Source: Escherichia coli (lineage in GTDB: Bacteria; Pseudomonadota; Gammaproteobacteria; Enterobacterales; Enterobacteriaceae). Taken from it: a stretch of 64,000 bases of DNA. Of this stretch, positions 7,270-40,633 are shown one piece after another; position 1 is the stretch's first letter, and the number at the start of each line of letters is the position of its first letter. The notes under the pieces are model-generated. The model made no database searches and had not been told where the DNA came from. It was given only the letters and a program-made list of their open reading frames with translations. The position numbers were made by a program, and so were the translations under genes. Location of the stretch: the NCBI RefSeq assembly GCF_013122565.1, contig NZ_CP053258.1; one strand, written 5' to 3'.

Positions 7270-7302
7270 TGAAATCTCCCCGGCTTGCTGCCGGGGATGA
7301 AT

Positions 7303-9233: not shown

Positions 9234-9643
9234 CAGACTGGGTCCTGAATCAAAGAAGGGGAGAGTAACGACTCTTTCCAGGCATCGGCAATATTGCGCA
9301 TTAATGCTTCCACTTCTTCGACTGCGGAGACATCGTTGCGTAAATTGGCTTGCAGCAAACGCCTGACCATATAGCTATAAAGAGCAATCAAGTTTTGGGT
9401 TAATTCGTCTTTGCTCTCTTCATCAAGACTCACCCGAAGTCCGTTCTCAATGATGTTGATCGCTTTTGACAAAGAGACGCCTTTGCCTTGCTGATTGTTG
9501 TCCTGCATAAACAGGCGCGCTCTAACCAGTGCGCTCAGCACTCCATCAAATAGCATGGTGACCAGCTGCTGCTGGCTGGCGCTCATTACGGCGCTTTCGA
9601 CGCCAATTTGTGCATAGGCCTGGGTGCCTTTTGCCGCGTACAT
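9233..9643 (-). CDS. fliS: Flagellin-specific chaperone FliS
   Basis: ORF 9233..9643, 136 aa, [34 protein letters not shown]...; matches FliS. Confidence 0.92.
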
Positions 9644-9658
9644 AGTTTCTCCTGAAGA

Positions 9659-11074
9659 TTATTTCGAGTTGCTATTTGAGGTGTCGAACTGCTGTGTCAG
9701 ATAGCTACTGGTGGAGTTAAGCGAGTTCATTAACACATCTAATTGGGTGAACTGGGCTTTATAGCGCGTCATTAAGGTATCGATACGCTCACTGGCTGCG
9801 TTGTACTGGTCGGTCAAATTATTAAGCGTTTTGCTGACGCCATCTTTTGCGGCCTGGATTATCCCGGTGGAAGAGAGCCAACTGGTCAGGTTGCTACTAA
9901 TGCCGGTGGTTACCCCTGTACTTTTACCGTCACCTATAAACATTTCACCGATGCCAGCGGCATCTTTTTTTAGCGCCGTTTGCAGTTTGTCAGTCGCGAT
10001 TTCCAGCTTGCCGGTACTGGCATCGCTGGTAATGCCAATCTGTGCCAGCGTTTTATAGTTTGAACTGCTGTGAGTATTGGCGAGCAAGGTTTTAAGCTGA
10101 GTCTGGATGGTACGCAGTGTGGAGTCACCGAGTAATGCGCCATTACTGGAGTCCTGACTTTCTGCTCCGGCATCGACAGCGGTGTATTTGGTTAAGCTAC
10201 TGAATGTATCCTGCAATGTGTTATAGGCATCCACCCATGCTTTGACCGCATTTTCAGCTTTGGATGTGTCTTTATTGATGGTCAGTGTCTGATTACCGGT
10301 GGTGACGTCATTCAGGTTGAGTGTGATATCTTCCAGCGCGTCGCTGATAGTGTTACTGCTGTTTTCAATCTCAACGTTATTGACTGTCAGTTTGGCGTTT
10401 TGCGCGGTGACGCTTTCAATCATGCCATTGCTGCTATCACCCGACGTTCCGTTGTAACCCATAAAACTTTCCAGGGCGCTGTCGCCGCTGACGCTAAGTT
10501 TCATAGCGTTATCGTTGCCCGTATCGTTAGCGGTGATGGACAGACGATATTCGCCGTTTCTCACATTGATGATACTGGCGCTGACACCAGCTTTGGCGTT
10601 GTTAATGGCATCGCGAATGCCGGAAAGTGACGAGTTAGCTGCGCTGATATCAATCGTGACCGGATCTTTACCGCCGCCTTGCTGGATGGTCAGTACGCTA
10701 TCGCTGGTGGCGATGGCAGCTTTACTGTCTTTTTGACTAATTTTTGTGGTCAGCGTTTGTGCCTGCGCCAGTTGGCTAACGCTAATGGTGTATTTCCCGG
10801 CAATCGCGCTGCCCGTGGTGGTGGCGCTGAAAGCCGATGAACTGCTGGTGGTTGAAGTGGCGGTAAATAAATCGGCTTTATTCAGTGCTGTGTTGGCTGT
10901 CTGGAAACTCTCTAGTGCACTTTTCAGCGTCCCGTAGGCGCTCAGTTTCGCGGTGTAAGAGCTTTGCTGTTTTGATATCGGCGTCAGGGTAGATTTTTCT
11001 GCCGCCTCCAGACTGTCAAGGATGCTGCTTAAATCCAGCCCCGACCCAACCCCAAGCGTTGAAATACTAGCCAT
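9659..11074 (-). CDS. fliD: Flagellar filament cap protein FliD (variant allele, 471 aa)
   Basis: ORF 9659..11074, MASISTLGVGSGLDLSSILDS...; conserved termini, divergent in the middle relative to K-12 FliD (468 aa by recollection). Confidence 0.9.
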   Translation of the reverse strand: MASISTLGVGSGLDLSSILDSLEAAEKSTLTPISKQQSSYTAKLSAYGTLKSALESFQTANTALNKADLFTATSTTSSSSAFSATTTGSAIAGKYTISVSQLAQAQTLTTKISQKDSKAAIATSDSVLTIQQGGGKDPVTIDISAANSSLSGIRDAINNAKAGVSASIINVRNGEYRLSITANDTGNDNAMKLSVSGDSALESFMGYNGTSGDSSNGMIESVTAQNAKLTVNNVEIENSSNTISDALEDITLNLNDVTTGNQTLTINKDTSKAENAVKAWVDAYNTLQDTFSSLTKYTAVDAGAESQDSSNGALLGDSTLRTIQTQLKTLLANTHSSSNYKTLAQIGITSDASTGKLEIATDKLQTALKKDAAGIGEMFIGDGKSTGVTTGISSNLTSWLSSTGIIQAAKDGVSKTLNNLTDQYNAASERIDTLMTRYKAQFTQLDVLMNSLNSTSSYLTQQFDTSNSNSK

Positions 11075-11116
11075 ATAAATTCCTTAATCATGCGACGTAT
11101 AGAACGAATACCGGGG

Positions 11117-11143
11117 TTATCGGCGTAAGCGGGGCAAAGTTTA
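11117..11143 (-). promoter_or_regulatory. sigma-28 (FliA) class 3 promoter for fliDST
   Basis: + strand reads ttatcggc-N11-aaagttta, i.e. on the minus strand TAAACTTT-N11-GCCGATAA, a near-perfect match to the sigma-28 consensus TAAAGTTT-N11-GCCGATAA. Confidence 0.7.
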
Positions 11144-11216
11144 CGATTTATTTTTTGGCTTAATGACACGAACAGCAACGAGGAAGGGGAGTATTTCGAC
11201 CGCTAGAAAAAAATTC

Positions 11217-11243
11217 TAAAGGTTGTGAGTGACCAGACGATAA
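11217..11243 (+). promoter_or_regulatory. sigma-28 (FliA) class 3 promoter for fliC
   Basis: taaaggtt-N11-gacgataa upstream of fliC; close to the sigma-28 consensus. Confidence 0.65.
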
Positions 11244-11319
11244 CAGGGTTGACGGCGACGAAGCCGAAGGGTGGAAGCCCAATACTTAAACCGTAGACTT
11301 GAAAACAGGAAAATGAATC

Positions 11320-12663
11320 ATGGCACAAGTCATTAATACCAACAGCCTCTCGCTGATCACTCAGAACAACATCAACAAAAACCAGTCTGCGCTGTCGACT
11401 TCTATCGAGCGCCTCTCTTCTGGTCTGCGCATTAACAGCGCTAAAGATGACGCTGCGGGCCAGGCGATTGCTAACCGCTTCACTTCTAACATCAAAGGTC
11501 TGACTCAGGCCGCACGTAACGCCAACGACGGTATCTCTCTGGCGCAGACCACTGAAGGCGCACTGTCTGAAATCAACAACAACTTGCAGCGTGTTCGTGA
11601 ACTGACCGTTCAGGCCACTACCGGTACTAACTCTGATTCTGACCTGTCTTCAATCCAGGACGAAATCAAATCCCGTCTCGATGAAATTGACCGCGTATCC
11701 GGTCAGACTCAGTTCAACGGCGTGAACGTACTGGCAAAAGATGGCTCGATGAAAATTCAGGTCGGTGCAAATGATGGTCAGACAATCAGCATTGATTTGC
11801 AGAAGATTGATTCTTCTACTTTAGGGTTAAATGGTTTTTCTGTTTCCAAAAATGCAGTATCTGTTGGTGATGCTATTACTCAATTGCCTGGCGAGACGGC
11901 AGCCGATGCACCAGTAACCATCAAGTTTGATGATTCAGTAAAAACTGATTTAAAACTGACCGATGCTTCAGGGTTAAGTCTGCATAACCTCAAAGATGAA
12001 AATGGTAATTTAACTAACCAGTATGTTGTACAGAATGGCGGAAAATCTTACGCTGCTACAGTCGCTGCCAATGGTAATGTTACGCTGAACAAAGCAAATG
12101 TAACCTACAGCGATGTCGCAAACGGTATTGATACCGCAACGCAGTCAGGCCAGTTAGTTCAGGTTGGTGCAGATTCTACCGGTACGCCAAAAGCATTCGT
12201 GTCTGTCCAAGGTAAAAGCTTTGGCATTGATGACGCCGCCTTGAAGAATAACACTGGTGATGCTACCGCTACTCCACCGGGAGCATCTGGGACAACAGTT
12301 GTCGCAGCGTCAATTCATCTGAGTACGGGCAAAAACTCTGTAGACGCTGATGTAACGGCTTCCACTGAATTCACAGGTGCTTCAACCAACGATCCACTGA
12401 CTCTGCTGGACAAAGCTATCGCATCTGTTGATAAATTCCGTTCTTCTTTGGGGGCGGTACAGAACCGTCTGAGCTCCGCTGTAACCAACCTGAACAACAC
12501 CACCACCAACCTGTCTGAAGCGCAGTCCCGTATTCAGGACGCCGACTATGCGACCGAAGTGTCCAACATGTCGAAAGCGCAGATTATCCAGCAGGCAGGT
12601 AACTCCGTGCTGTCCAAAGCTAACCAGGTACCGCAGCAGGTTCTGTCTCTGCTGCAGGGTTAA
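11320..12663 (+). CDS. fliC: Flagellin FliC (H-antigen), 447 aa, non-K-12 serotype
   Basis: ORF 11320..12663; conserved N-terminal (MAQVINTNSLSLITQNNINKNQSALSTSIERLSSGLRINSAKDDAAGQAIANRF...) and C-terminal (...QNRLSSAVTNLNNTTTNLSEAQSRIQDADYATEVSNMSKAQIIQQAGNSVLSKANQVPQQVLSLLQG) flagellin domains flank a distinct central region; K-12 FliC is 498 aa by recollection. Confidence 0.92.
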   Translation: MAQVINTNSLSLITQNNINKNQSALSTSIERLSSGLRINSAKDDAAGQAIANRFTSNIKGLTQAARNANDGISLAQTTEGALSEINNNLQRVRELTVQATTGTNSDSDLSSIQDEIKSRLDEIDRVSGQTQFNGVNVLAKDGSMKIQVGANDGQTISIDLQKIDSSTLGLNGFSVSKNAVSVGDAITQLPGETAADAPVTIKFDDSVKTDLKLTDASGLSLHNLKDENGNLTNQYVVQNGGKSYAATVAANGNVTLNKANVTYSDVANGIDTATQSGQLVQVGADSTGTPKAFVSVQGKSFGIDDAALKNNTGDATATPPGASGTTVVAASIHLSTGKNSVDADVTASTEFTGASTNDPLTLLDKAIASVDKFRSSLGAVQNRLSSAVTNLNNTTTNLSEAQSRIQDADYATEVSNMSKAQIIQQAGNSVLSKANQVPQQVLSLLQG

Positions 12664-18729: not shown

Positions 18730-18954
18730 TTACTGACGGTAGGCTTGTTTAATTTGCTTAACCGTTTTGGAAAATACTGCAGCCTGGGTTTCGTCTTCGA
18801 TCAGCGCAAGCTGTTTTTCCATCTTTAACATCACGCGGCCCGCGTCAGCTTGTCCCATCGCCTGCAGCATCAGCGTCAGCATCGCTTTCAGGCAGGAGAC
18901 TTCATTTGCCAGTTCTTGATTATTCTCGGCAGTAGAAAAATCAGGCGTACTCAT
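18730..18954 (-). CDS. yecF: Small protein YecF (DUF2594)
   Basis: ORF 18730..18954, 74 aa, [20 protein letters not shown]...; position between sdiA and uvrY. Confidence 0.85.
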
Positions 18955-19411
18955 TTATTTTCCTCGTCATGTTGCAATGAAAATTTGCGGTGAAAAATGT
19001 TAAGGCGGCGGAGTATACCATAAGCTTTGCTAAAAATAGCAGTGGTTGTTTTTTGAGCGTGCCGTCAACGGTGCTATTAAATGCGTTAATATAATGACCA
19101 ATAAATATTTTTATCATGAATGTTTTTGCCCGTATTGTTCGGGTTAATTAATGTTACATATTCAGCGGGCTGATTTTCATTTTTGCTGAATAAAGGTAAT
19201 TTTTGTCACATTTCGTCGCAGGGCTTACTGTGAAACGATCCGGTAAGCCGTTGGTGACGGGCGTGACCATAACTGTGGACAATCGAATTGACAAAAACGA
19301 GAGAAAAATCGAATACCCACCATTTTTAACGTTTCAAAGTTGCAATAAAAACCGCTAATATACGAATGACTAACTATCAGTAGCGTTATCCCTATTTCTG
19401 GAGATATTCCT

Positions 19412-20068
19412 TTGATCAACGTTCTACTTGTTGATGACCACGAACTGGTGCGCGCAGGGATACGACGCATTCTGGAAGATATAAAGGGTATAAAAGTCGT
19501 CGGTGAGGCATCGTGCGGTGAAGACGCCGTTAAGTGGTGCCGGGCAAATGCCGTTGACGTGGTGCTAATGGACATGAGTATGCCGGGCATTGGCGGTCTT
19601 GAGGCGACGCGTAAAATCGCGCGTTCCACAGCTGATGTAAAAATCATCATGCTTACCGTCCATACAGAAAACCCTTTACCAGCGAAAGTCATGCAGGCCG
19701 GTGCTGCGGGCTACCTCAGCAAAGGCGCGGCTCCGCAGGAAGTCGTGAGTGCGATTCGTTCTGTCTATTCTGGGCAGCGTTACATTGCTTCTGACATCGC
19801 TCAACAAATGGCATTAAGCCAGATCGAACCAGAAAAAACAGAAAGCCCATTTGCCAGTTTGTCTGAACGTGAATTGCAGATTATGCTGATGATCACTAAG
19901 GGCCAGAAGGTCAATGAGATCTCAGAACAGCTCAATCTCAGTCCGAAAACGGTGAACAGCTACCGCTATCGAATGTTCAGTAAACTAAACATTCATGGCG
20001 ATGTTGAGCTGACTCACCTGGCAATTCGCCATGGTCTGTGTAATGCGGAGACATTATCAAGTCAGTGA
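19412..20068 (+). CDS. uvrY: Response regulator UvrY (BarA/UvrY two-component system)
   Basis: ORF 19412..20068, 218 aa, [23 protein letters not shown]...; receiver plus LuxR-type HTH domains. Confidence 0.95.
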
Positions 20069-21897
20069 GTGATCAGTTTGACGCAAAAGCGTTTTTAAAA
20101 ACCGTAACCAGCCAGCCAGGCGTTTATCGCATGTACGATGCTGGTGGTACGGTTATCTATGTCGGCAAAGCGAAAGACCTGAAAAAACGGCTTTCCAGCT
20201 ATTTCCGTAGCAACCTCGCTTCGCGCAAAACCGAAGCGCTGGTCGCCCAGATCCAGCAAATTGATGTAACGGTTACTCATACAGAAACCGAAGCGCTGTT
20301 GCTGGAACACAACTACATCAAACTCTATCAGCCGCGTTACAACGTTTTGCTACGCGATGATAAATCATATCCTTTTATCTTCCTGAGTGGTGATACCCAC
20401 CCGCGTCTGGCGATGCATCGTGGTGCAAAGCATGCCAAAGGTGAATATTTCGGCCCGTTCCCGAATGGCTATGCCGTACGTGAAACACTGGCGCTACTGC
20501 AAAAGATTTTCCCCATTCGCCAGTGCGAAAACAGTGTTTATCGCAATCGCTCGCGTCCGTGTCTGCAATATCAGATAGGGCGCTGTCTGGGGCCGTGCGT
20601 TGAAGGACTGGTGAGTGAAGAAGAATACGCTCAGCAGGTCGAGTATGTGCGCCTGTTTTTGTCTGGCAAAGATGATCAGGTGCTTACGCAACTGATTAGC
20701 CGTATGGAAACTGCCAGCCAGAATCTGGAGTTTGAAGAAGCGGCACGTATTCGCGACCAAATTCAGGCGGTGCGACGCGTCACCGAAAAACAGTTTGTTT
20801 CCAATACCGGCGACGACCTTGACGTTATTGGTGTGGCGTTCGATGCGGGCATGGCTTGTGTCCACGTATTGTTCATTCGTCAGGGCAAAGTGCTCGGCAG
20901 CCGCAGCTATTTCCCGAAAGTGCCTGGCGGTACGGAACTGAGCGAGGTGGTGGAAACCTTCGTAGGTCAGTTCTATTTACAAGGCAGCCAGATGCGCACC
21001 TTACCGGGTGAGATCCTGCTCGATTTTAATCTTAGCGATAAAACGCTGCTCGCCGATTCCCTTTCAGAACTGGCGGGACGCAAGATTAATGTTCAAACCA
21101 AACCTCGCGGCGATCGGGCGCGTTATCTGAAACTCGCGCGCACCAATGCGGCGACGGCCTTAACCAGCAAACTTTCGCAGCAATCTACCGTTCACCAGCG
21201 GCTGACAGCGCTTGCCAGCGTGTTAAAATTGCCGGAAGTGAAGCGGATGGAGTGCTTTGACATCAGCCATACCATGGGGGAACAAACCGTCGCTTCCTGT
21301 GTGGTGTTTGATGCTAACGGCCCGCTGCGTGCGGAGTATCGGCGCTATAACATTACTGGCATCACGCCGGGCGATGATTATGCGGCGATGAATCAGGTGC
21401 TGCGTCGGCGTTATGGTAAAGCCATCGACGACAGTAAGATGCCGGATGTGATCCTTATCGACGGCGGCAAAGGCCAGCTTGCGCAGGCGAAAAATGTCTT
21501 CGCCGAACTGGATGTCTCATGGGATAAAAATCATCCGCTGCTACTTGGCGTTGCCAAAGGAGCAGATCGTAAGGCTGGGCTGGAAACGCTGTTCTTTGAG
21601 CCGGAAGGTGAGGGATTCAGTTTGCCGCCAGATTCTCCCGCGCTGCATGTTATCCAGCATATTCGCGATGAATCACATGATCACGCGATTGGCGGGCACC
21701 GTAAAAAACGGGCGAAGGTCAAAAATACCAGTTCCCTGGAAACCATTGAAGGCGTCGGGCCAAAACGCCGGCAAATGTTGTTGAAATATATGGGTGGTTT
21801 GCAAGGTTTACGTAACGCCAGCGTCGAGGAAATTGCAAAAGTGCCGGGTATTTCGCAAGGTCTGGCAGAAAAGATCTTCTGGTCGTTGAAACATTGA
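20065..21897 (+). CDS. uvrC: Excinuclease ABC subunit C (UvrC)
   Basis: ORF 20065..21897 (GTG start overlapping uvrY stop), 610 aa; GIY-YIG motif region ([24 protein letters not shown]). Confidence 0.95.
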
Positions 21898-21953
21898 TGT
21901 CTCTGTAGCAACATAGGGGTAATCTTACTGACAACAGATAGTTACCCGTCATT

Positions 21954-22502
21954 ATGCAATTTAATATCCCTACGTTGCTTACACTGTTCCGTGTCATCCT
22001 TATCCCATTCTTTGTATTGGTCTTTTATCTGCCTGTCACCTGGTCGCCGTTTGCCGCCGCGCTCATTTTCTGCGTCGCGGCGGTGACTGACTGGTTCGAT
22101 GGTTTTCTGGCACGCCGCTGGAACCAGAGTACCCGGTTTGGTGCTTTCCTTGACCCTGTCGCAGATAAAGTTCTCGTGGCTATCGCCATGGTGCTGGTAA
22201 CCGAGCATTATCACAGCTGGTGGGTGACCTTACCGGCGGCAACGATGATCGCCCGTGAGATTATTATTTCTGCGCTACGCGAATGGATGGCGGAGTTGGG
22301 TAAACGCAGTAGCGTGGCTGTCTCCTGGATTGGGAAAGTGAAAACTACTGCCCAGATGGTGGCGTTGGCCTGGCTGCTGTGGCGTCCGAACATTTGGGTT
22401 GAGTACGCCGGTATTGCACTTTTCTTTGTGGCTGCGGTACTGACTCTGTGGTCAATGTTGCAATATTTGAGCGCTGCGCGTGCAGATTTGCTTGATCAGT
22501 GA
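21954..22502 (+). CDS. pgsA: CDP-diacylglycerol--glycerol-3-phosphate 3-phosphatidyltransferase PgsA
   Basis: ORF 21954..22502, 182 aa; CDP-alcohol phosphotransferase motif region ([27 protein letters not shown]). Confidence 0.95.
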
Positions 22503-22653
22503 TCGTTTCGACGCAATTTTCAGCAAACGATCAAAAGTGGTGAAAAATATCGTTGACTCATCGCGCCAGGTAAGTAGAATGCAACGCATCGAACGGCGGC
22601 ACTGATTGCCAGACGATAATAAAATCAAGTGATTAACTGATTGCTTGATGAAT

Positions 22654-22729
<76 letters not shown>

Positions 22730-22782
22730 GTTTAAAAGACATCGGCGTCAGCGGATGTCTGGCTGAAAGGCCTGAAGAATTT

Positions 22783-22856
22783 GGCGCGTTAACAAAGCGG
22801 TTATGTAGCGGATTGCAAATCCGTCTAGTCCGGTTCGACTCCGGAACGCGCCTCCA
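22783..22856 (+). tRNA. cysT: tRNA-Cys (anticodon GCA)
   Basis: ggcgcgttaacaaagcggttatgtagcggattGCAaatccgtctagtccggttcgactccggaacgcgcctcca. Confidence 0.95.
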
Positions 22857-22868
22857 CTTTCTTCCCGA

Positions 22869-22955
22869 GCCCGGATGGTGGAATCGGTAGACACAAGGGA
22901 TTTAAAATCCCTCGGCGTTCGCGCTGTGCGGGTTCAAGTCCCGCTCCGGGTACCA
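22869..22955 (+). tRNA. leuZ: tRNA-Leu (anticodon TAA), long variable arm
   Basis: gcccggatggtggaatcggtagacacaagggattTAAaatccctcggcgttcgcgctgtgcgggttcaagtcccgctccgggtacca. Confidence 0.95.
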
Positions 22956-22997
22956 TGGGAAAGATAAGAATAAAATCAAAGCAATAAGCAGTGTCGT

Positions 22998-23023
22998 GAA
23001 ACCACCTTCGGGTGGTTTTTTTG
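22998..23023 (+). terminator. Rho-independent terminator of the glyW-cysT-leuZ operon
   Basis: Hairpin aaaccaccttcgggtggttt followed by ttttttt. Confidence 0.7.
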
Positions 23024-23150
23024 TGCCTGCAACTTGTCGTTACACCCTCCTTAATTTTTAATCACCGGCAAAGCCACTCAAAAAGTATCTCTGATACGGA
23101 CCGACATGTAAGATAGGTGCTGGCGAGTTGAGATCCACAAGGAAAAGCGT

Positions 23151-23816
23151 ATGAAAACGGGACCGTTAAACGAAAGTGAGTTGGAATGGCTGGACGATAT
23201 TCTGACCAAATACAACACTGACCACGCCATTCTTGATGTGGCGGAGCTGGACGGTTTATTGACGGCGGTGTTGAGTTCTCCGCAAGAGATTGAACCGGCA
23301 CAGTGGCTGGTTGCCGTATGGGGTGGGGCTGACTATGTGCCACGCTGGGCGTCAGAGAAAGAGATGACGCGCTTTATGAACCTGGCTTTTCAGCATATGG
23401 CCGATACCGCAGAGCGTCTGAACGAATTCCCGGAGCAGTTTGAGCCGTTATTCGGCTTGCGAGAAGTCGATGGCAGCGAGCTGACGATTGTTGAGGAGTG
23501 GTGCTTTGGCTATATGCGGGGCGTGGCACTTTCTGACTGGTCAACGTTGCCCGATTCGTTAAAACCAGCGCTGGAGGCGATTGCGCTGCACGGTACTGAG
23601 GAAAACTTCGAGCGGGTAGAGAAGATGTCGCCAGAAGCGTTTGAAGAGAGCGTAGATGCCATTCGACTGGCGGCGCTTGATTTACATGCGTACTGGATGG
23701 CCCATCCGCAGGAAAAAGCTGTTCAGCAACCGATCAAAGCAGAAGAGAAACCTGGGCGCAACGATCCTTGTCCGTGCGGCAGTGGTAAGAAATTTAAGCA
23801 GTGCTGCCTGCATTAA
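23151..23816 (+). CDS. yecA: YecA (UPF0149 protein with C-terminal SEC-C zinc-binding motif)
   Basis: ORF 23151..23816, 221 aa; C-terminal [13 protein letters not shown] metal-binding motif. Confidence 0.9.
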
Positions 23817-23825
23817 GAGGTCACA

Positions 23826-23860
23826 TTGGGTGTCAGCGTTAATTCTGGCACCCAATAAGG
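23826..23860. terminator. Hairpin between convergent yecA and tyrP
   Basis: Inverted repeat attgggtg...cacccaat in the 61-bp convergent spacer. Confidence 0.4.
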
Positions 23861-23877
23861 AATTTGAGGCTATCTGA

Positions 23878-25089
23878 TCACCCCACTTCTGGTAACAACC
23901 CTGCCGCAATCAAAAATTGCACGCTAATCACAGCAATACCACAGAGAAACACCACCACCAGCGCCGGACGACCACCTTTGACCCGGTAACCCGCCTGAGG
24001 ATTGTGCTTTCTGCTTTGCCAGGTCAACAGCGAAGGGATAATCAATGCCAGTACCGCCAGCGCCACACCGGCGTAACCCAGCGCCATCACAAATCCTCGT
24101 GGATAAAACAGTGCAAACGCCAACGGCGGCAGAAAGGTAATTGCACCAGTTTGCAATCGTCCACCAACGGTATTTGAACGCTGAAACAAATCAGCCAGAT
24201 AATCAAATAAGCCTAACGCAACGCCGAGAAATGACGTGGCGAGCGCTAAATCAGCAAATAAATGCACTGCCAGCTCAACATGCGGAGAGGCCACCATTTC
24301 GCGTAACGCCTGTAACAGCCCGTTTAATCCAGCATGATTAGCCAGCAATCCCATAAAGGTTGTTGAATCAATGCTGCCAAGCGTCGCCACCTGCCAGAAA
24401 ATATATGCCACCAGGGGGATCGCACTACCAGTTATAAACACCCAGCGTAGCTTACGAATGTTGCCATCCATATAACTGACAATGCTCGGCACGCTGCCGT
24501 GAAAACCAAACGACGTAAAAATCACCGGGATTGCAGACAGTGCCAGCCCCTGTTGCAATGGCAGGGTTAAAAGATTCACCTTGTGAATATGTGGAAGCAG
24601 CAGTACCAGCATTACCACCAGAAAAATAATTTTGGCGCTGAACAGAAAACGGTTAAATAAATCGACCAGCGAAGTTCCAACACAAACCACGCCACCGGCA
24701 ACAAAAGTGAACAACAGCACGCCAGCGGTTGCCGACATTGAAATACCTGTCCAGTCGCTGATGCTGGAGGCCAACAATTCACCGGCACCGCTGATGTATG
24801 CCGCAGTCAGAGCATACATTAAGAACATCATACTGAAGCCCGTCAGCCACTGACCGTAGCGTCCCAGATAGCGTTTTGCCAGCGTGCCCAAGCCGGTATC
24901 TGCCGGGACATGCTGGTACACCTCCAGCAGTAATAGCGCCGTGTAGCACATCAACGCCCAAAGCCCAATCAACAATATTAACGTGACGCTAAAACCAACA
25001 CCTGCCGCAGCCAGCGGCATTGCCAGCATACCTGCGCCAATTGTGGTTCCCGCCACGATAAAAACACTTCCCAGAGTTCTGTTTTTCAC
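23878..25089 (-). CDS. tyrP: Tyrosine-specific transport protein TyrP
   Basis: ORF 23878..25089, 403 aa, [30 protein letters not shown]...; multi-TM aromatic amino-acid permease. Confidence 0.95.
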
Positions 25090-25277
25090 GCTTTCTTCTG
25101 TCCTGACGATCTTTATGAGTGATATCTGCGGCGCAGGTTAAGGCATTACGTCTGATTCGTCAAACCGACGTTACATATGATGTAAAGATAAATGTACAAT
25201 AAAAACATTCAGTCCTGCGCTGGCGCAAAGTCTTCATAAGCGGCAATCGGTACGCTAGGCTTTTTTGAGGAGGAACG

Positions 25278-25517
25278 ATGGACTCTATTCACGGTCACGA
25301 AGTGTTAAATATGATGATTGAATCAGGCGAGCAATATACGCATGCGAGTCTGGAAGCAGCGATTAAAGCGCGTTTCGGTGAACAGGCACGTTTTCACACC
25401 TGCTCGGCAGAAGGGATGACAGCGGGAGAGCTGGTAGCGTTTCTGGCAGCAAAAGGCAAATTTATACCTTCAGAAGAAGGTTTTTCGACCGATCAGAGTA
25501 AGATTTGCCGTCACTGA
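25278..25517 (+). CDS. yecH: Small protein YecH (DUF2492)
   Basis: ORF 25278..25517, 79 aa; conserved position between tyrP and ftnA. Confidence 0.85.
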   Translation: MDSIHGHEVLNMMIESGEQYTHASLEAAIKARFGEQARFHTCSAEGMTAGELVAFLAAKGKFIPSEEGFSTDQSKICRH

Positions 25518-25553
25518 TTTGAAACGGCGGCAGAAACCTGCCGCCGGAGAGCA

Positions 25554-26051
25554 TTAGTTTTGTGTGTCGAGGGTAGAGAGTTCTTTGTCGATAAAATACA
25601 GACCTTCGCCGCTTTTGCCTGCCAGGCTTAATTTATCAATAATCGATTTGAACAGTTTCTCTTCTTCGTGCTGCTCAGAAACATACCATTGCAAGAAATT
25701 AAATGTTGGATAGTCCTGATTGGTCATTGCAGCATGAGCCAGTTCGTTAATTTTCTGCGTGATTAATTGTTCGTGTTTATAGGTTTCCTGGAATAATTCA
25801 TCAAGTGAGGAATATTCAGCAAACGGAGATTCAACGGTATTAATACGCGGTAAATTGCCGGTATCAGTCAGGTAATCAAACAGACGCTGCATATGTGTCA
25901 TCTCTTCCTGGGCGTGGCGGCGCAGGAACGCGGCAGCACCTTCGAAGGTATGATAGCTGCACCAGGCGCTCATTTGCTGATAAAGCAGTGAAGAGTACAG
26001 TTCCAGGTTCATCTGCTCATTAAGTTTTTCAATCATTTCTGGTTTCAGCAT
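25554..26051 (-). CDS. ftnA: Ferritin FtnA
   Basis: ORF 25554..26066 trimmed to [30 protein letters not shown]... at 26049..26051, 165 aa. Confidence 0.9.
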
Positions 26052-26222
26052 GATAGTGCTCCACAAAGGTTATATTTGTTGCTGTGGCGTCACTATAATT
26101 TGTTATTTTATTATTTGCAAAAGGTAAAATATAAACTTCAATTATTAAAAATACGAATGGGAATAAAACGCATTACCGCTATTTATTTAATCAGCGAAGA
26201 TCCCCCTCGCTGATTAAAACAT

Positions 26223-26546
26223 TTAGAGAAAGACAGGGAAGGCGGAATGATGGCACTGATATGACAAAGTGAATTCCGTATTCAAACATAAGGAACCCGC
26301 AAAGAGGCTACAGTTGCCTACTGGCTGACCAAAGGGGATAGCGTGGGTATAGCCTTCCTGCTGGCATGCGCGATCGGCGATCCCGCGACTGACATAACGA
26401 TCGGTATGGGCATGCTGCAAAAAAGCCTGGTCATAAACCAACCGTACAATACCTGTTGCCGCGTCAACTTCGCTCACATGGGCCTGGCGAGTAACCGTAC
26501 ACCCCGCCAGCGTTATTAATGAAAGAGTCAGAATCAGAAGTCTCAT
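26223..26546 (-). CDS. yecR: Lipoprotein YecR
   Basis: ORF 26223..26546, 107 aa, MRLLILTLSLITLAGCTV...; signal peptide plus lipobox LAGC. Confidence 0.85.
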   Translation of the reverse strand: MRLLILTLSLITLAGCTVTRQAHVSEVDAATGIVRLVYDQAFLQHAHTDRYVSRGIADRACQQEGYTHAIPFGQPVGNCSLFAGSLCLNTEFTLSYQCHHSAFPVFL

Positions 26547-26711
26547 GGTCCAGCCAGAAGAGTAAGAGAAAGCACTATTTTACGCGTTACAGCGCTGCGA
26601 CAATGGCCGGAAAAGACGCCTGGCAGGCGCTATTTCTTGCCATCTGTAGGTGTCAGAAATAGGGGGGCTGTTTTTTTGATTATCATTTTTATAACATTAA
26701 AGGGGTATTTA

Positions 26712-26727
26712 TGTGATTTGTATCACA
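26712..26727. promoter_or_regulatory. CRP binding site upstream of azuC
   Basis: tgtgatttgtatcaca is a perfect TGTGA-N6-TCACA CRP consensus; a second, weaker site tgtgatggttgtcata lies at 26742..26757. Confidence 0.6.
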
Positions 26728-26809
26728 TAAAGATTGATTTTTGTGATGGTTGTCATATTATAAGCGCAAAGACAATAACACCTGTATAACAAATGGTCGG
26801 AGTGCCGCG

Positions 26810-26896
26810 ATGAAACTGCGCAAGATCCTGAAAAGTATGTTCAATAACTATTGCAAGACGTTCAAAGACGTACCGCCTGGCAATATGTTCCGATAA
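26810..26896 (+). CDS. azuC: Small membrane-associated protein AzuC (28 aa)
   Basis: Hand translation of atgaaactgcgcaag...atgttccgataa gives MKLRKILKSMFNNYCKTFKDVPPGNMFR; below the 60-aa cutoff of the ORF track; followed by a terminator. Confidence 0.8.
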   Translation: MKLRKILKSMFNNYCKTFKDVPPGNMFR

Positions 26897-26898
26897 CA

Positions 26899-26927
26899 AA
26901 AAACCTGCTCCGGCAGGTTTTTTTGTG
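26899..26927 (+). terminator. Rho-independent terminator after azuC
   Basis: aaaaaacctgctccggcaggttttttt: hairpin flanked by an A-run and a T-run. Confidence 0.7.
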
Positions 26928-27010
26928 TCCTGATGATGGTGGATGTGACTATCGCTGAAGATGTGAAGCCGCTACTATAACGGCTTTCAAAATGCTATCA
27001 GGAGTTTACG

Positions 27011-27262
27011 ATGTCCCAGCCGCTGAATGCCGATCAGGAACTGGTTTCTGATGTGGTTGCTTGCCAGTTGGTTATCAAACAAATTCTGGATGTTCTCGAT
27101 GTAATCGCGCCCGTTGAAGTTCGCGAAAAAATGTCCAGCCAGCTGAAGAATATCGACTTTACTCACCATCCCGCCGCCGCAGACCCGGTCACCATGCGGG
27201 CAATCCAAAAAGCCATCGCGCTGATTGAACTCAAGTTTACCCCACAGGGCGAATCCCATTAA
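27011..27262 (+). CDS. yecJ: Small protein YecJ (DUF2766)
   Basis: ORF 27011..27262, 83 aa, [21 protein letters not shown]... Confidence 0.85.
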
Positions 27263-27340
27263 AAAACCGCTGCTTCAAAAAGATGAGGCAGCGGTTTCTC
27301 AAAAACTTCATCGGCGCAATGCATTAGCGCCGATGTATGA

Positions 27341-27844
27341 TCAATGCAGCTGATGCGACACGACATTCAGAACATGTTGGTCGGTCTGCACAGGGCACAT
27401 ACCCGCAAGTTTCGCACTGCGCACCTCTTCAAGAATGGTTTGCAGCAACAGGCCATCATGCTGCTGTTCTTTTTCCAGATCGCGCAGGAAATTGACGGTT
27501 GAATCATCATTCAGTTCTTTCGCTTCATCGGCTAACTGCGCCAGCGTGCTTGAACGTTGCTCGTATTCTTCCATCGTTTTTTGGAACAGTTCTTCCAGAG
27601 AGTTCAGTTTTTCACCGGGAACATCAATGGCTTTAACGATGGGGGTAGCGCCGACACTCTTCATAAAGTTAAACATGCGCATCATTTGGGTCACATTACT
27701 CTGTGCCTGGGCGCGTAGGAAAGTGGCGGTGCCGTTCAGACTCTGTTCAGAACACCAGTTACTCAGGTGAAGGTAGAGATTGGATGCGTAAAACTCGCGG
27801 TTCATTTGAGAGTTGAGTTTGAGAAGCATTCCAGCGGTTGCCAT
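27341..27844 (-). CDS. ftnB: Ferritin-like protein FtnB
   Basis: ORF 27341..27844, 167 aa, [30 protein letters not shown]...; ferritin-like paralogue of ftnA. Confidence 0.9.
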
Positions 27845-28640
27845 ACCTAATATCCTTATATCCAGAAGTGGAGAGGTGCAAGATAAATCAAAGCACCATA
27901 ATTACTGTTTGCAGAATAATTCCTTTCTGCCGGTCCGAAATGTGATCGTGGAGTCAATTCTGACGATGATCTGAAATAAGAATAACGTGTGTACGGGTAT
28001 AAGAAAATCCTTAAATCATCAAGTTTATATTTTTTTACATTTCATTGATGAAATCAATGTAACTGCAATGAATTTTAATGATAGTGCTTTTTGTATCTTG
28101 TTGATATCAATCGATAGATTTAAATTCATGATGAAGCAATGATTTTATAAAACGTTTTTTCATTTTTGCGAGATGGCTCGCATTATATGTGTTCTGTTAA
28201 TTAATGAGCCCAGTGATAATTAATGGCGAAATGAATGACGCGCATTTCCCACATCTTTGAGTTGCGGTTATTACGCCATTTCAAAAGCTCAACGTCAGGT
28301 AATGCGGCCTATTGACTGGTTAAAAAGAAGACATCCCGCATGGGTACCAAAGACAACAAGGACTTCCAGGCTAATCTTATGGATTAATCTGCTGTGCACT
28401 CGACAATTTGTCTGACAAATAAGTATTTCCTTATGTCTTTTCCCGCTAAATTTATGCACGTTCTCACTGTAATTCTGCGATGTGATATTGCTCTCCTATG
28501 GAGAATTAATTTCTCGCTAAAACTATGTCAACACGGTCACTTATCTTTTAGTTAAAAGGTAATGCTTTGTTTTCCGATTAATTTAACGAAAGTCATTCGT
28601 TTTTGCCCTACACAAAACGACACTAAAGCTGGAGAGAACC

Positions 28641-29630
28641 ATGCACAAATTTACTAAAGCCCTGGCAGCCATTGGTCTGGCAGCCGTTATGTCACAATCC
28701 GCTATGGCGGAGAACCTGAAGCTCGGTTTCCTGGTGAAGCAACCGGAAGAGCCGTGGTTCCAGACCGAATGGAAGTTTGCCGATAAAGCCGGGAAGGATA
28801 TAGGGTTTGAGGTTATTAAGATTGCCGTGCCGGATGGCGAAAAAACATTGAACGCGATCGACAGCCTGGCTGCCAGTGGCGCAAAAGGTTTCGTTATTTG
28901 TACTCCGGACCCGAAACTCGGCTCTGCCATCGTGGCGAAAGCGCGTGGCTACGATATGAAAGTCATTGCCGTGGATGACCAGTTTGTTAACGCCAAAGGT
29001 AAGCCAATGGATACCGTTCCGTTGGTGATGATGGCTGCGACCAAAATTGGCGAACGTCAGGGCCAGGAACTGTATAAAGAGATGCAGAAACGGGGCTGGG
29101 ATGTCAAAGAAAGCGCGGTGATGGCGATTACCTCCAACGAACTGGATACGGCTCGTCGCCGTACTACGGGGTCTATGGATGCGCTGAAAGCTGCCGGATT
29201 CCCGGAAAAACAAATTTATCAGGTACCTACCAAATCTAACGACATCCCGGGGGCATTTGACGCTGCCAACTCAATGCTGGTTCAACATCCGGAAGTTAAA
29301 CATTGGCTGATCGTCGGTATGAACGACAGCACCGTACTGGGCGGCGTACGTGCAACCGAAGGTCAGGGCTTTAAAGCGGCCGATATCATCGGTATCGGTA
29401 TTAACGGTGTGGACGCAGTAAGCGAACTGTCTAAGGCACAGGCAACCGGCTTCTACGGTTCCCTGCTGCCAAGCCCGGATGTACATGGTTATAAGTCCAG
29501 CGAAATGCTTTACAACTGGGTAGCAAAAGGTGTTGAACCGACCAAATTCACCGAAGTTACCGACGTGGTGCTGATCACGCGTGACAACTTTAAAGAAGAA
29601 CTGGAGAAAAAAGGTTTAGGCGGTAAGTAA
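28641..29630 (+). CDS. araF: L-arabinose ABC transporter periplasmic binding protein AraF
   Basis: ORF 28641..29630, 329 aa, MHKFTKALAAIGLAAVMSQSAMAENLKLGFLVKQPEEPWF... Confidence 0.95.
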   Translation: MHKFTKALAAIGLAAVMSQSAMAENLKLGFLVKQPEEPWFQTEWKFADKAGKDIGFEVIKIAVPDGEKTLNAIDSLAASGAKGFVICTPDPKLGSAIVAKARGYDMKVIAVDDQFVNAKGKPMDTVPLVMMAATKIGERQGQELYKEMQKRGWDVKESAVMAITSNELDTARRRTTGSMDALKAAGFPEKQIYQVPTKSNDIPGAFDAANSMLVQHPEVKHWLIVGMNDSTVLGGVRATEGQGFKAADIIGIGINGVDAVSELSKAQATGFYGSLLPSPDVHGYKSSEMLYNWVAKGVEPTKFTEVTDVVLITRDNFKEELEKKGLGGK

Positions 29631-29645
29631 TTTGCCGGAAAAATT

Positions 29646-29668
29646 CCCCTCTGCATGATGCAGAGGGG
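29646..29668 (+). other. Intercistronic palindromic hairpin between araF and araG
   Basis: cccctctgcatgatgcagagggg is a near-perfect palindrome right after the araF stop; likely mRNA stability or partial termination element. Confidence 0.45.
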
Positions 29669-29699
29669 GTGTGAACGACCAGTGATTCACGGAGACGTT

Positions 29700-31214
29700 A
29701 TGCAACAGTCTACCCCGTATCTCTCATTTCGCGGCATCGGTAAAACGTTTCCCGGCGTTAAGGCGCTGACGGATATTAGTTTTGACTGCTATGCCGGTCA
29801 GGTTCATGCGTTGATGGGTGAAAATGGCGCAGGAAAATCAACTCTCTTAAAAATCCTCAGCGGCAACTATGCGCCAACCACGGGTTCTGTAGTGATTAAT
29901 GGGCAGGAAATGTCCTTTTCCGACACGACCGCAGCACTTAACGCGGGCGTGGCGATTATTTACCAGGAACTGCATCTCGTGCCGGAAATGACCGTCGCGG
30001 AAAACATCTATCTCGGCCAGCTGCCGCATAAAGGCGGCATTGTGAATCGCTCATTGCTGAATTATGAGGCGGGTTTACAACTTAAACATCTTGGTATGGA
30101 TATTGACCCGGACACGCCGCTGAAATATCTCTCCATTGGTCAGTGGCAGATGGTTGAAATCGCCAAAGCGCTGGCGCGTAACGCCAAAATTATCGCCTTT
30201 GATGAGCCAACCAGCTCCCTCTCTGCCCGTGAAATCGACAATCTTTTCCGCGTTATTCGTGAACTGCGAAAAGAGGGGCGGGTGATCTTATACGTTTCTC
30301 ACCGTATGGAAGAAATATTTGCCCTCAGCGATGCCATCACTGTCTTTAAAGATGGACGTTATGTCAAAACCTTTACCGATATGCAGCAGGTTGACCACGA
30401 CGCGCTGGTGCAGGCGATGGTCGGGCGCGACATTGGCGATATCTACGGCTGGCAACCGCGTAGTTATGGCGAGGAGCGCCTGCGTCTTGATGCTGTGAAA
30501 GCACCAGGCGTGCGTACGCCAATAAGTCTGGCGGTTCGCAGTGGTGAAATTGTTGGGCTGTTTGGTCTGGTAGGGGCGGGGCGTAGCGAATTAATGAAAG
30601 GCATGTTTGGCGGGACGCAAATAACCGCCGGTCAGGTTTATATCGACCAACAGCCGATCGATATTCGTAAACCGAGCCACGCCATTGCCGCAGGCATGAT
30701 GCTCTGCCCGGAAGATCGCAAAGCGGAAGGCATTATTCCCGTGCACTCCGTTCGCGACAATATCAACATCAGTGCCAGACGTAAACATGTGCTCGGCGGT
30801 TGTGTAATCAACAACGGTTGGGAAGAAAACAATGCCGATCACCACATTCGTTCTCTCAACATCAAAACGCCGGGCGCTGAGCAACTGATCATGAATCTCT
30901 CAGGCGGAAATCAGCAAAAAGCCATTCTGGGCCGCTGGTTATCGGAAGAGATGAAGGTCATTTTGCTGGATGAACCTACGCGCGGCATTGATGTTGGTGC
31001 TAAGCATGAAATTTACAACGTGATTTATGCGCTGGCGGCGCAGGGTGTGGCGGTGCTGTTTGCCTCCAGCGACTTACCTGAAGTCCTCGGCGTTGCCGAC
31101 CGGATTGTGGTGATGCGGGAAGGTGAAATCGCCGGTGAATTGTTACACGAGCAGGCAGATGAGCGTCAGGCACTGAGCCTTGCGATGCCTAAAGTCAGCC
31201 AGGCAGTTGCCTGA
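29700..31214 (+). CDS. araG: L-arabinose ABC transporter ATP-binding protein AraG
   Basis: ORF 29655..31214 trimmed to [23 protein letters not shown]... at 29700, 504 aa; duplicated ABC cassette (GENGAGKST ... LSGGNQQK). Confidence 0.9.
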
Positions 31215-31228
31215 GTAAGGAGAGTATG

Positions 31229-34581
<3,353 letters not shown>

Positions 34582-34587
34582 GAGCGG

Positions 34588-35016
34588 TTAATCTCCCGTA
34601 AGTGGAACTAACAGCACATCGACCTCACTTGAGGCAATCACTCTTTTCGCCGAGCAGGATGCTCGCGAAAAGAAACTGTGATTGTGATTACCGCAAATCA
34701 CCAAATCGAAATGATATTTGCGACAAACTTCCAGAATATGTTCGCTTAACTCACCGTAGGCAATAAACGTCTTGTCAACGGGATACCCCGCATCCTGAAT
34801 TAACTTATCAAGAAAGCTTTGCGTTTCTTCTTGCATCACGCTGCGTAAATCTTCAAGCATCGGCGCGGCTAATTGATTGTACATTTCCGGATCGGAAGCG
34901 AGAGTAATTAAACTGATGTGTCCCTTTACTGGCCTGGCGATAGATACCGCTTTTGCCAGCAGTTGCTGACTTTCCGGTGTAACCGCAACAGCGACAAGAA
35001 TATTGCTATAGCTCAT
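34588..35016 (-). CDS. uspC: Universal stress protein UspC
   Basis: ORF 34588..35016, 142 aa, MSYSNILVAVAVTPESQQLLAKAVSIARP... Confidence 0.9.
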   Translation of the reverse strand: MSYSNILVAVAVTPESQQLLAKAVSIARPVKGHISLITLASDPEMYNQLAAPMLEDLRSVMQEETQSFLDKLIQDAGYPVDKTFIAYGELSEHILEVCRKYHFDLVICGNHNHSFFSRASCSAKRVIASSEVDVLLVPLTGD

Positions 35017-35518
35017 AACCTGTTCCTTATTCTGTGAACTTCAGGTGACATTAAAGCTTTACTCCTAATGGAGAAACGACGCAATCCCAACTCAGTCAAA
35101 CAGGTAAATATTAGTCTGATTATTAGTAAAGACAATTAAACAATTGCTTCCGGTGATCATATGATTTCAAATGTAATTATAAGAAAATAGTGTACTGATT
35201 CTCCGCATTAAACAAGTGGTTAATATATGTAAAACATTTTATTAACATTAAGTTGATTGTTGCCTTTCTTTGTATTTAATCAGTTTGTTGTGCGGTAAGT
35301 GTCTGTTTAAAAATAGCTTATCTGGTATTGCATGAAAGTGATTATTTATAGCAGATGATTATTTACGGTGAGTTATTTTAACTGTGCGCAACATCCCATT
35401 TCGATTATTCCTGTTTCATTTTTGCTTGCTAGCGTTGCGAAAAACTTTTTAACAGATTGAAATACACCCAAAACAAAAGTATGACTTATACATTTATGTT
35501 AATTAATTGAGTGTTTTG

Positions 35519-35534
35519 TGTGATCTACATCACA
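35519..35534. promoter_or_regulatory. CRP binding site in the flhDC promoter region
   Basis: tgtgatctacatcaca is a perfect TGTGA-N6-TCACA; it lies ~270 bp upstream of the flhD start, consistent with the known CRP-activated flhDC promoter and its long 5'UTR. Confidence 0.65.
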
Positions 35535-35795
35535 CATTATTGAAAATCGGAGCCCCCCTCCGTTGTATGTGCGTGTAGTGACGAGTACAGTTGCGTCGAT
35601 TTAGGAAAAATCTTAGATAAGTGTAAAGACCCCTTTCTATTTGTAAGGACTTATTAAACCAAAAAGGTGGTTCTGCTTATTGCAGCTTATCGCAACTATT
35701 CTAATGCTAATTATTTTTTACCGGGGCTTCCCGGCGACATCACGGGGTGCGGTTAGACCGCATAAAAATAAAGTTGGTTATTCTGGGTGGGAATA

Positions 35796-36146
35796 ATGCA
35801 TACCTCCGAGTTGCTGAAACACATTTATGACATCAACTTGTCATATTTACTACTTGCACAGCGTCTGATTGTTCAGGACAAAGCGTCCGCTATGTTTCGT
35901 CTCGGCATAAATGAAGAAATGGCGACAACGTTAGCGGCACTGACTCTTCCGCAAATGGTTAAGCTGGCAGAAACCAATCAACTGGTTTGTCACTTCCGTT
36001 TTGACAGCCACCAGGCGATTACTCAGTTGACGCAAGATTCCCGCGTTGACGATCTCCAGCAAATTCATACCGGCATCATGCTCTCAACACGCTTGCTGAA
36101 TGATGTTAATCAGCCTGAAGAAGCGCTGCGCAAGAAAAGGGCCTGA
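35796..36146 (+). CDS. flhD: Flagellar master regulator subunit FlhD
   Basis: ORF 35787..36146 (GTG at 35787; ATG at 35796 gives [30 protein letters not shown]..., 116 aa). Confidence 0.9.
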
Positions 36147-36148
36147 TC

Positions 36149-36727
36149 ATGAGTGAAAAAAGCATTGTTCAGGAAGCGCGGGATATTCAGCTGGCAATGG
36201 AATTGATCACCCTGGGCGCTCGTTTGCAGATGCTGGAAAGCGAAACACAGTTAAGTCGCGGACGCCTGATAAAACTCTATAAAGAACTGCGCGGAAGCCC
36301 ACCGCCGAAAGGCATGCTGCCATTCTCAACCGACTGGTTTATGACCTGGGAACAAAACGTTCATGCTTCGATGTTCTGTAACGCATGGCAGTTTTTACTG
36401 AAAACAGGCTTGTGTAATGGCGTCGATGCAGTGATCAAAGCCTACCGTTTATACCTTGAACAGTGCCCGCAAGCAGAAGACGGACCGCTGCTGGCATTAA
36501 CCCGTGCCTGGACATTGGTGCGGTTTGTTGAAAGTGGATTACTGCAACTTTCCAGCTGCAACTGCTGCGGCGGCAATTTTATTACCCACGCTCACCAGCC
36601 TGTTGGCAGCTTTGCCTGCAGCTTATGTCAACCGCCATCCCGGGCAGTAAAAAGACGTAAACTTTCCCAGAATCCTGCCGATATTATCCCACAACTGCTG
36701 GATGAACAGAGAGTACAGGCTGTTTAA
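36149..36727 (+). CDS. flhC: Flagellar master regulator subunit FlhC
   Basis: ORF 36149..36727, 192 aa, [27 protein letters not shown]...; zinc-binding cysteines near the C-terminus. Confidence 0.95.
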
Positions 36728-36751
36728 CTGATACGGTGTGGCGCAACATTC

Positions 36752-36786
36752 CAGCAGCGGTAACGACGTACCGCTGCTTTTTTTTG
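36752..36786 (+). terminator. Rho-independent terminator after flhC
   Basis: Hairpin cagcagcggtaacgacgtaccgctgc followed by tttttttt. Confidence 0.65.
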
Positions 36787-36853
36787 CCCCAATCGCGCGT
36801 TAACGCCTGACGACTGAACATCCTGTCATGGTCAACAGTGGAAGGATGATGTC

Positions 36854-37737
36854 GTGCTTATCTTATTAGGTTACCTGGTTGTTCTCGGTACAGTTTTCGG
36901 CGGTTATTTGATGACCGGTGGAAGCCTTGGAGCACTCTATCAACCCGCTGAACTGGTGATTATTGCCGGTGCAGGGATTGGGTCGTTTATCGTCGGCAAT
37001 AATGGCAAAGCGATTAAAGGCACGCTGAAGACGCTGCCGTTGCTGTTTCGTCGCTCCAAATACACCAAAGCAATGTATATGGATCTGCTGGCTCTGCTTT
37101 ATCGGTTGATGGCGAAATCGCGGCAGATGGGGATGTTTTCGCTGGAACGTGATATTGAAAATCCCCGTGAGAGCGAGATCTTCGCCAGCTACCCACGCAT
37201 CCTTGCGGATAGCGTCATGCTTGATTTTATCGTCGATTATCTGCGTCTGATTATCAGCGGTCACATGAACACCTTCGAAATCGAAGCCCTGATGGATGAA
37301 GAGATTGAGACGCACGAAAGCGAGGCAGAAGTCCCGGCGAACAGTCTGGCGCTGGTCGGGGACTCACTTCCGGCGTTTGGTATTGTCGCGGCTGTAATGG
37401 GGGTCGTTCACGCGTTAGGTTCAGCCGATCGTCCTGCCGCCGAGCTGGGGGCGCTTATCGCACATGCGATGGTGGGGACTTTCCTCGGCATTTTATTGGC
37501 TTACGGATTTATTTCCCCATTAGCAAGTGTTTTACGTCAGAAAAGCGCCGAAACCAGCAAAATGATGCAGTGCGTCAAAGTCACACTGCTTTCTAATCTG
37601 AACGGTTACGCACCGCCTATCGCCGTTGAGTTTGGTCGCAAAACGCTCTATTCCAGCGAACGTCCGTCGTTTATTGAACTGGAAGAGCATGTGCGTGCGG
37701 TGAAAAATCCGCAACAACAGACGACAACCGAGGAAGC

Positions 37738-37741
<4 letters not shown>
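36854..37741 (+). CDS. motA: Flagellar motor stator protein MotA
   Basis: ORF 36854..37741, 295 aa, [30 protein letters not shown]... Confidence 0.95.

Positions 37742-40633
<2,892 letters not shown>

Follow-up and report, generated by a model that had tools for sequence, protein, structure and literature searches.

AzuCR of Escherichia coli K-12, formerly known as IsrB or IS092, is a dual-function RNA of 164 nt, with a coding sequence extending from +40 to +126 and a transcription start at K-12 position 1988001 (Raina et al., 2022; PMC8915982). Its protein product AzuC is an amphipathic, membrane-associated peptide that co-purifies with GlpD and raises dehydrogenase activity, and both an SPA-tagged form of the protein and ribosome binding of the transcript have been reported (PMC8915982). 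As the base-pairing RNA AzuR, the same transcript pairs with the cadA and galE mRNAs and represses both, the pairing having been proven by compensatory mutations. Since the pairing nucleotides are part of the azuC coding sequence, translation and pairing interfere with one another. AzuC translation is itself repressed by the sRNA FnrS, the pairing of which, likewise proven by compensatory mutations, was placed 25–31 nt upstream of the ORF (PMC8915982).

AzuC-SPA and the AzuCR RNA are both abundant in glucose but scarce in glycerol or galactose, and their levels are raised in a Δcrp strain; CRP-dependent repression of azuC has been reported, and CRP sites have been predicted in the promoter (PMC8915982). 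FNR, PhoP and NarP have been reported as further repressors of azuC, with FNR motifs listed at K-12 1988039–1988055 and 1988042–1988058, and occupancy changes have been described upstream of the annotated CRP sites (PMC12266141, 2025). The distribution of azuC is stated in the literature as a restricted set of enteric bacteria.

The locus considered here, located in a 64,000-nt stretch of E. coli DNA that is referred to below as the window, is almost certainly azuC/azuR, encoding the E. coli dual-function RNA AzuCR together with its promoter, CRP repression, AzuC, cadA/galE pairing and FnrS control. A 28-codon ORF on the plus strand, running from an ATG at 26810 to a TAA at 26894–26896, translates as MKLRKILKSMFNNYCKTFKDVPPGNMFR, which is identical to RefSeq WP_010723106.1 and K-12 b4663 (28/28 residues by tblastn against the K-12 locus). 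With the NCBIfam equivalog NF033642 (stress_AzuC) the peptide scores 75.9 bits, well above the cut-off of 30 (E = 1.3e-21; profile positions 1–26 of 26); a Pfam search gave no family for it. The gene order yecR-azuC-yecJ is that of K-12, with azuC and yecJ on the same strand. Of 5426 complete E. coli genomes, 5419 contain a match to a 551-nt azuC region, and their annotation there reads "azuC: stress response protein AzuC", again between yecR and yecJ.

In K-12 MG1655 the azuC coding sequence (b4663; 1987873–1987959) is annotated within the ncRNA azuR (b4434; 1987843–1988001). The alignment of the window with K-12 is gapless across promoter, RNA and terminator and contains three mismatches in 271 nt, two of which (26824 and 26878) fall in the ORF, are both synonymous and lie outside the predicted cadA-pairing core. 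Coordinates were transferred from this alignment (K-12 coordinate = 2014769 − window position), which puts the published transcription start at window position 26768 and has the RNA end at 26926. By RefSeq coordinates AzuCR is 159 nt long with its coding sequence at +43 to +129, values that are 3–5 nt off the published numbers. A mechanically compiled ORF list gives the azuC frame as the tail of a 48-aa ORF (26750–26896) with a TTG start codon; since the TTG at 26750 is upstream of the transcription start, the ATG at 26810 represents the real start. Thirty ORFs of at least 20 aa overlap a 1.6-kb stretch here and a lone 28-codon ORF is not above chance; the significance of azuC derives from conservation and annotation and not from the mere existence of the ORF.

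The initial annotation, made from the letters alone, had read this stretch as azuC preceded by a perfect TGTGA-N6-TCACA site and followed by a strong terminator. The naming is borne out by RefSeq identity, the 75.9-bit NCBIfam match and the synteny; the palindrome is present as an exact match (26712–26727), and the terminator is a hairpin of −18 kcal/mol (26898–26924). Whereas the identity of the gene stands, that reading left unmentioned the repression by CRP, the second site over the −10 hexamer and the base-pairing sRNA AzuR, as well as the fact that these features are in print (PMC8915982, PMC12266141). Publications already cover the gene and its protein along with the RNA function and the regulators, RefSeq annotates the gene routinely, and nothing essential is new; azuC serves as a control case, in which a sequence-only reading recovered a known 28-aa gene and its operator. 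The features of the locus are collected in Table 1.

Table 1. Features of the azuC/azuR locus, in window coordinates.
Feature	Position	Strand	Basis
Distal CRP-type palindrome TGTGATTTGTATCACA, centre −48.5	26712–26727		Perfect TGTGA-N6-TCACA; predicted
−35 hexamer TTGATT	26734–26739	+	Promoter scan, TTGATT-16-TATTAT
Proximal CRP-like site TGTGATGGTTGTCATA, one mismatch, centre −18.5	26742–26757		One-mismatch scan; predicted
−10 hexamer TATTAT	26756–26761	+	Promoter scan; last base 7 nt upstream of the mapped start
AzuCR/AzuR (IsrB, IS092) transcript, 159 nt	26768–26926	+	K-12 annotation transferred
FnrS target CACCUGU, 5′ UTR	26779–26785	+	Published position transferred; complementarity
Ribosome-binding site GGAG, separated from the ATG by 7 nt	26799–26802	+	Read from the sequence
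azuC coding sequence, 28 aa plus stop	26810–26896	+	Translation, RefSeq identity, NCBIfam match, conserved frame
Inferred AzuR pairing region for cadA (core 26848–26865), inside the coding sequence	26838–26873	+	Local duplex search
Intrinsic terminator A6-CCTGC-TCCG-GCAGG-T7	26898–26924	+	Fold energy versus shuffles

Two perfect TGTGA-N6-TCACA sites were found in the window, where shuffles lead to an expectation of 0.09. The proximal site extends over the promoter spacer into the opening bases of the −10 hexamer; the background of such one-mismatch CRP-like sites is 1.84 per 64 kb, and the probability of finding a neighbour within 50 bp is approximately 0.003. Fifty-nine upstream sequences were compared, of which 52 fit a strict two-site pattern and the other seven differ by single substitutions. 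All 52 carry the proximal site in the form TGTGA-N6-TCATA, and the distance between distal and proximal centres is 30 bp in every one of them, as it is in the window. The −35 hexamer TTGATT is present in 47 of the 52 pattern-fitting sequences, the −10 hexamer is TATTAT in 49 and TACTAT in three, and GGAG is found in 51, with a spacer of 6–7 nt in 49. At the distal site the half-sites GTGA-N6-TCAC are conserved across genera while the spacer is free, and in the multi-genus alignment the −35 and −10 hexamers and the proximal site all fall within one conserved block, TTGATTTTTGTGA-N6-TCATATTAT. Conserved blocks corresponding to both CRP-type sites, the −35, the −10, the FnrS target, the ribosome-binding site as well as the terminator are split by variable sequence.

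The presence of a second site over the −10 fits the published CRP repression of azuC. Judging from this geometry, occlusion of the −10 by a protein bound at the proximal site is the likely mechanism of repression, and the distal site would be positioned on roughly the same helical face as the proximal one.

The published FNR motifs map to window positions 26714–26730 and 26711–26727 and therefore onto the distal palindrome (K-12 1988039–1988058 corresponds to 26711–26730). It is possible, if on balance unlikely, that this palindrome represents an FNR operator, or a hybrid CRP/FNR operator, that mediates anaerobic repression of the promoter. Mutation of the motif or deletion of fnr relieves repression in reporter assays (PMC12266141), although a mutation that destroys the motif would also destroy CRP binding, so that the reporter data do not separate the two proteins. 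The sequence GTGAT-TTGT-ATCAC agrees with the FNR consensus TTGAT-N4-ATCAA at eight of 10 positions; however, both mismatches fall at the positions that discriminate between the two regulators. Specificity at these positions is such that GTGA is recognized by CRP and TTGA by FNR. Of 59 upstream sequences examined, both sites were located in 52; every one of these has the G of GTGA, and TTGA occurs in no species. CRP-dependent repression has, moreover, been reported independently (PMC8915982). Because the discriminating bases are of the CRP type and the G of GTGA is invariant across genera, CRP is kept as the primary reading of the distal palindrome, and additional use of the site by FNR is considered the less probable case.

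Activation by CRP, either of azuC or of the divergently oriented yecR (start 26546, minus strand), is an improbable function for the perfect site. Most perfect CRP sites are activator sites, and this one lies within a 263-bp intergenic region shared by the two divergent genes; however, −48.5 falls outside the canonical positions for activation, the −10 is covered by the partner site, and a 30-bp coupling to the promoter elements of azuC, constant in all genera, links the site to that gene. For azuC itself, activation is already contradicted by the published expression data, in which AzuC and AzuCR are high in glucose, low in glycerol and galactose and raised in Δcrp (PMC8915982). The preferred reading remains that of a pair of sites through which CRP would repress azuC.

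At the other end of the transcript, the −18 kcal/mol terminator hairpin has a z-score of −4.6, and none of 200 shuffles folds as well. Across 45 sequences the stem is invariant and the loop variable. A simple terminator scan missed this hairpin, probably because the A and T runs pair and lengthen the stem, and flagged an unrelated one at 26617–26629. The terminator is symmetric, with A6 before the hairpin and T7 after it, and could also stop minus-strand transcription arriving from the yecJ/ftnB side.

Beyond the terminator, no conserved RNA structure was detectable with RNAalifold in the 45 sequences (covariation term −0.32), and the whole-RNA fold of AzuCR has a z-score of −1.5. The minimum-free-energy structure of the E. 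coli RNA contains a pairing that buries the ribosome-binding site, which was set aside since it is not conserved. The first 28 nt of AzuCR are predicted to be unpaired, which in the folding model fits an accessible FnrS site. Rfam searches of the locus gave no match to an AzuCR/IsrB model and only sub-threshold, terminator-driven matches to STnc370 (34 and 27 bits versus a threshold of 54) and rsmX (23 versus 56); the 34-bit STnc370 match is on the minus strand and reflects the terminator hairpin alone. STnc370 was entertained as the Salmonella counterpart of AzuCR and dropped, as Rfam gave no matches in 12 related loci, Salmonella included.

Relatives of the locus were gathered via the neighbouring gene product YecJ, yielding 80 loci from distinct GTDB species, a sample that also takes in loci lacking azuC. 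The azuC ORF is kept in 58 of the 80, representing at least 11 genera, and in all 58 is situated approximately 100–200 nt upstream of yecJ. Carriers include Escherichia, Citrobacter (the amalonaticus and sedlakii groups), Enterobacter, Lelliottia, Leclercia and Kosakonia, in addition to Huaxiibacter, Pseudenterobacter, Pseudescherichia, Silvania and Pseudocitrobacter; in most of the 58 loci AzuC is 27 aa long and is without the final Arg. On this sampling of genomes, azuC is more widely distributed than the literature indicates.

Among 54 distinct coding sequences, the numbers of variable columns at codon positions 1, 2 and 3 are 10, 11 and 26 of 27, and the corresponding mean entropies are 0.15, 0.24 and 0.80. 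The azuC frame is open in all 54, whereas the other two sense frames are open in two and 13. Similarity sets in exactly at the start codon; the pseudo-translation upstream of it is unconserved, with scattered stops. Taken as alignment evidence, the conservation of the frame and the codon-position pattern indicate that the azuC reading frame is conserved and under purifying selection. Loss of the frame in related genomes had been named as the observation that would count against the gene, and the 80 yecJ loci do not provide it. The hydrophobic moment calculated for helix residues 1–20 of AzuC (0.53, versus a shuffle mean of 0.24; p = 0.013) is in keeping with an amphipathic helix in the protein.

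These data also bear on whether the transcript is a non-coding sRNA only, with a fortuitous 28-codon ORF. IsrB/IS092 was first described as an sRNA candidate, short ORFs are common here by chance (the 30 noted above over 1.6 kb), and the peptide is without a Pfam family. Against this stand the codon-position variability, the frame open in 54 of 54 sequences, the conserved ribosome-binding site and start codon, the NCBIfam equivalog match and the published tagged protein and ribosome binding (PMC8915982). An exclusively non-coding role is consequently highly improbable and is already refuted by the conservation pattern. The still less credible proposal that the real gene is an antisense 48-aa ORF (26753–26899, minus strand), the in-register frame of which is without a stop in 53 of 54 sequences, can be rejected as a shadow ORF, since the absence of TTA, CTA and TCA codons from the sense strand is enough to keep that frame open, its variable positions would be the first of each codon, contrary to what coding sequences show, and the promoter, ribosome-binding site and terminator geometry all serve the plus strand.

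Where azuC is absent, its position is taken by other sequences. In Salmonella and C. koseri a 212-aa ORF lies between yecR and yecJ, in the C. freundii complex a transporter-like ORF of about 457 aa adjoins yecJ, and in Buttiauxella other genes are found at this position. A loss within Escherichia was also seen: in Escherichia sp. MOD1-EC7003 a deletion of approximately 690 bp (locus positions 1240–1505, compared with window 26209–26896) has taken out yecR and the azuC promoter and ORF, and the upstream region of ftnA is joined to a decayed azuC terminator with yecJ intact. MOD1-EC7003 is a natural azuC-null lineage.

The FnrS target is contained in a conserved block of the 5′ UTR, AACACCTGCATAACA. 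The 5′ end of FnrS, GCAGGUG, complements CACCUGU with one G-U pair. The perfect complement of this end, CACCTGC, is the commonest form, occurring in 41 of the 59 upstream sequences, and both the window and K-12 have CACCTGT. In an Enterobacter clade (loci L019, L039, L040, L044 and related ones, at about 1266–1300) AAGTTGT replaces CACCTGC in the 5′ UTR, and most members of this clade start azuC with GTG, not ATG. The combination suggests that translational control of azuC may be altered in these bacteria.

For the base-pairing function, the duplexes predicted by whole-length RNAduplex runs with cadA and with galE were too long to be realistic, those with galE being no better than shuffles, and these runs were replaced by searches in local windows of 28 nt. 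The best predicted local duplexes between 26838–26873 and K-12 cadA (−8 to +25) have energies of −21.9 and −21.4 kcal/mol and constitute a long, near-perfect complement. For galE several similar candidate pairing sites were detected in the 28-nt windows, none of which could be placed with confidence.

The 18-nt core of the predicted cadA-pairing region is identical in none of 53 sequences from outside Escherichia, in which the most frequent number of mismatches is three in the 18 nt. Third-position entropy is 1.01 inside the pairing region (codons 10–22) versus 0.60 outside it, showing no extra synonymous constraint. The lack of conservation of the cadA core, together with this lack of additional constraint, suggests that regulation by the RNA may have arisen later than the function of the protein. 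The elements picked out as selected by the cross-genus comparison are the two CRP half-site pairs at 30 bp, the FnrS target, the ribosome-binding site, the codons and the terminator stem. It may be, and we advance this tentatively as somewhat short of an even chance, that a coding mRNA with a double CRP operator and, in most genera, an FnrS target is ancestral to much of the Enterobacteriaceae, and that cadA riboregulation is recent and specific to Escherichia.

The following scheme is proposed for the locus in E. coli. The sigma-70 promoter TTGATT-16-TATTAT would start a transcript of about 159 nt at 26768 that ends at the hairpin at 26898–26924. When glucose is lacking, cAMP-CRP would occupy the two sites, of which one immediately precedes the −35 and the other overlies the −10, and switch the promoter off. 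Translation from the GGAG and ATG would give the 28-aa amphipathic membrane protein AzuC, which, on the basis of the literature, would bind GlpD and increase glycerol-3-phosphate dehydrogenase activity. Sequence inside the ORF would pair with the cadA and galE mRNAs and bring about their repression, with translation and pairing in competition, and under anaerobiosis FnrS would pair with CACCUGU in the 5′ UTR and block AzuC synthesis.

The initial annotation had further held that an ORF list filtered at 60 aa hides small genes in this window, and a search for K-12-annotated genes shorter than 60 aa in the equivalent span agrees with it: three annotated ones are present, azuC, yecU (58 aa; 18944–19117, minus strand; 93% identical to K-12) and yecV (14 aa; 54466–54507, plus strand; 13 of 14 residues identical to K-12). 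The only perfect TGTGA-N6-TCACA palindrome in the window besides the distal azuC site is TGTGATCTACATCACA at 35519–35534, approximately 270 bp upstream of flhD. If the flhD transcript starts 198 nt upstream of the ATG, this site is at −71.5 of the K-12 flhDC promoter and corresponds to the known CRP activator site. An IS1H element that lies just upstream in MG1655 is missing from the window near flhD.

Between cheZ and flhB the window contains a 2.4-kb insert (47615–50049) that is not found in K-12 and carries two overlapping minus-strand ORFs. The larger (502 aa; 48409–49917) matches the HD domain of Pfam and, at 5e-71, the PADLOC model for an anti-phage dGTPase; the other (250 aa; 47688–48440) has no match in Pfam, PADLOC or NCBIfam. 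Only 106 of the 5426 complete E. coli genomes have the insert at full length, with the annotation "dgt" and a hypothetical protein, and it possibly represents a two-gene defence islet with an uncharacterised partner. Elsewhere, identity to K-12 drops to 91% over 4400–11811 (fliD to yedK), the window lacks, at ~4324–4400, some 1.9 kb that in K-12 separates yedK from fliE and includes the yedN pseudogene, and the best identity of positions 20000–40000 to any of the 5426 genomes is at most 98.6%. Judged by sequence identity, the source is an Escherichia lineage that is not closely represented among complete genomes.

AzuCR of K-12 is the same gene as the one described here, with an identical peptide, 268 of 271 nt in common, the same neighbours yecR and yecJ and, within the ORF, a difference of only the two synonymous substitutions. 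Among other known systems, Spot 42 of E. coli (spf; PMC8916003) is, like AzuCR, a short CRP-repressed RNA that pairs with carbon-metabolism mRNAs and encodes a tiny protein; its product SpfP, however, is 15 aa long and has CRP itself as its target, in contrast to GlpD for AzuC, and the sequences are unrelated. SgrS/SgrT of E. coli is likewise a dual-function RNA in sugar metabolism, although its coding and pairing regions are separate whereas those of AzuCR overlap and compete. The carbon-metabolism RNA VcdRP of Vibrio cholerae (PMC8672173) also has a dual function and resembles AzuCR in encoding a protein of ~29 aa, VcdP, that raises the activity of a metabolic enzyme, but it belongs to another genus, is unrelated in sequence and, unlike AzuCR, keeps its pairing and coding regions separate.
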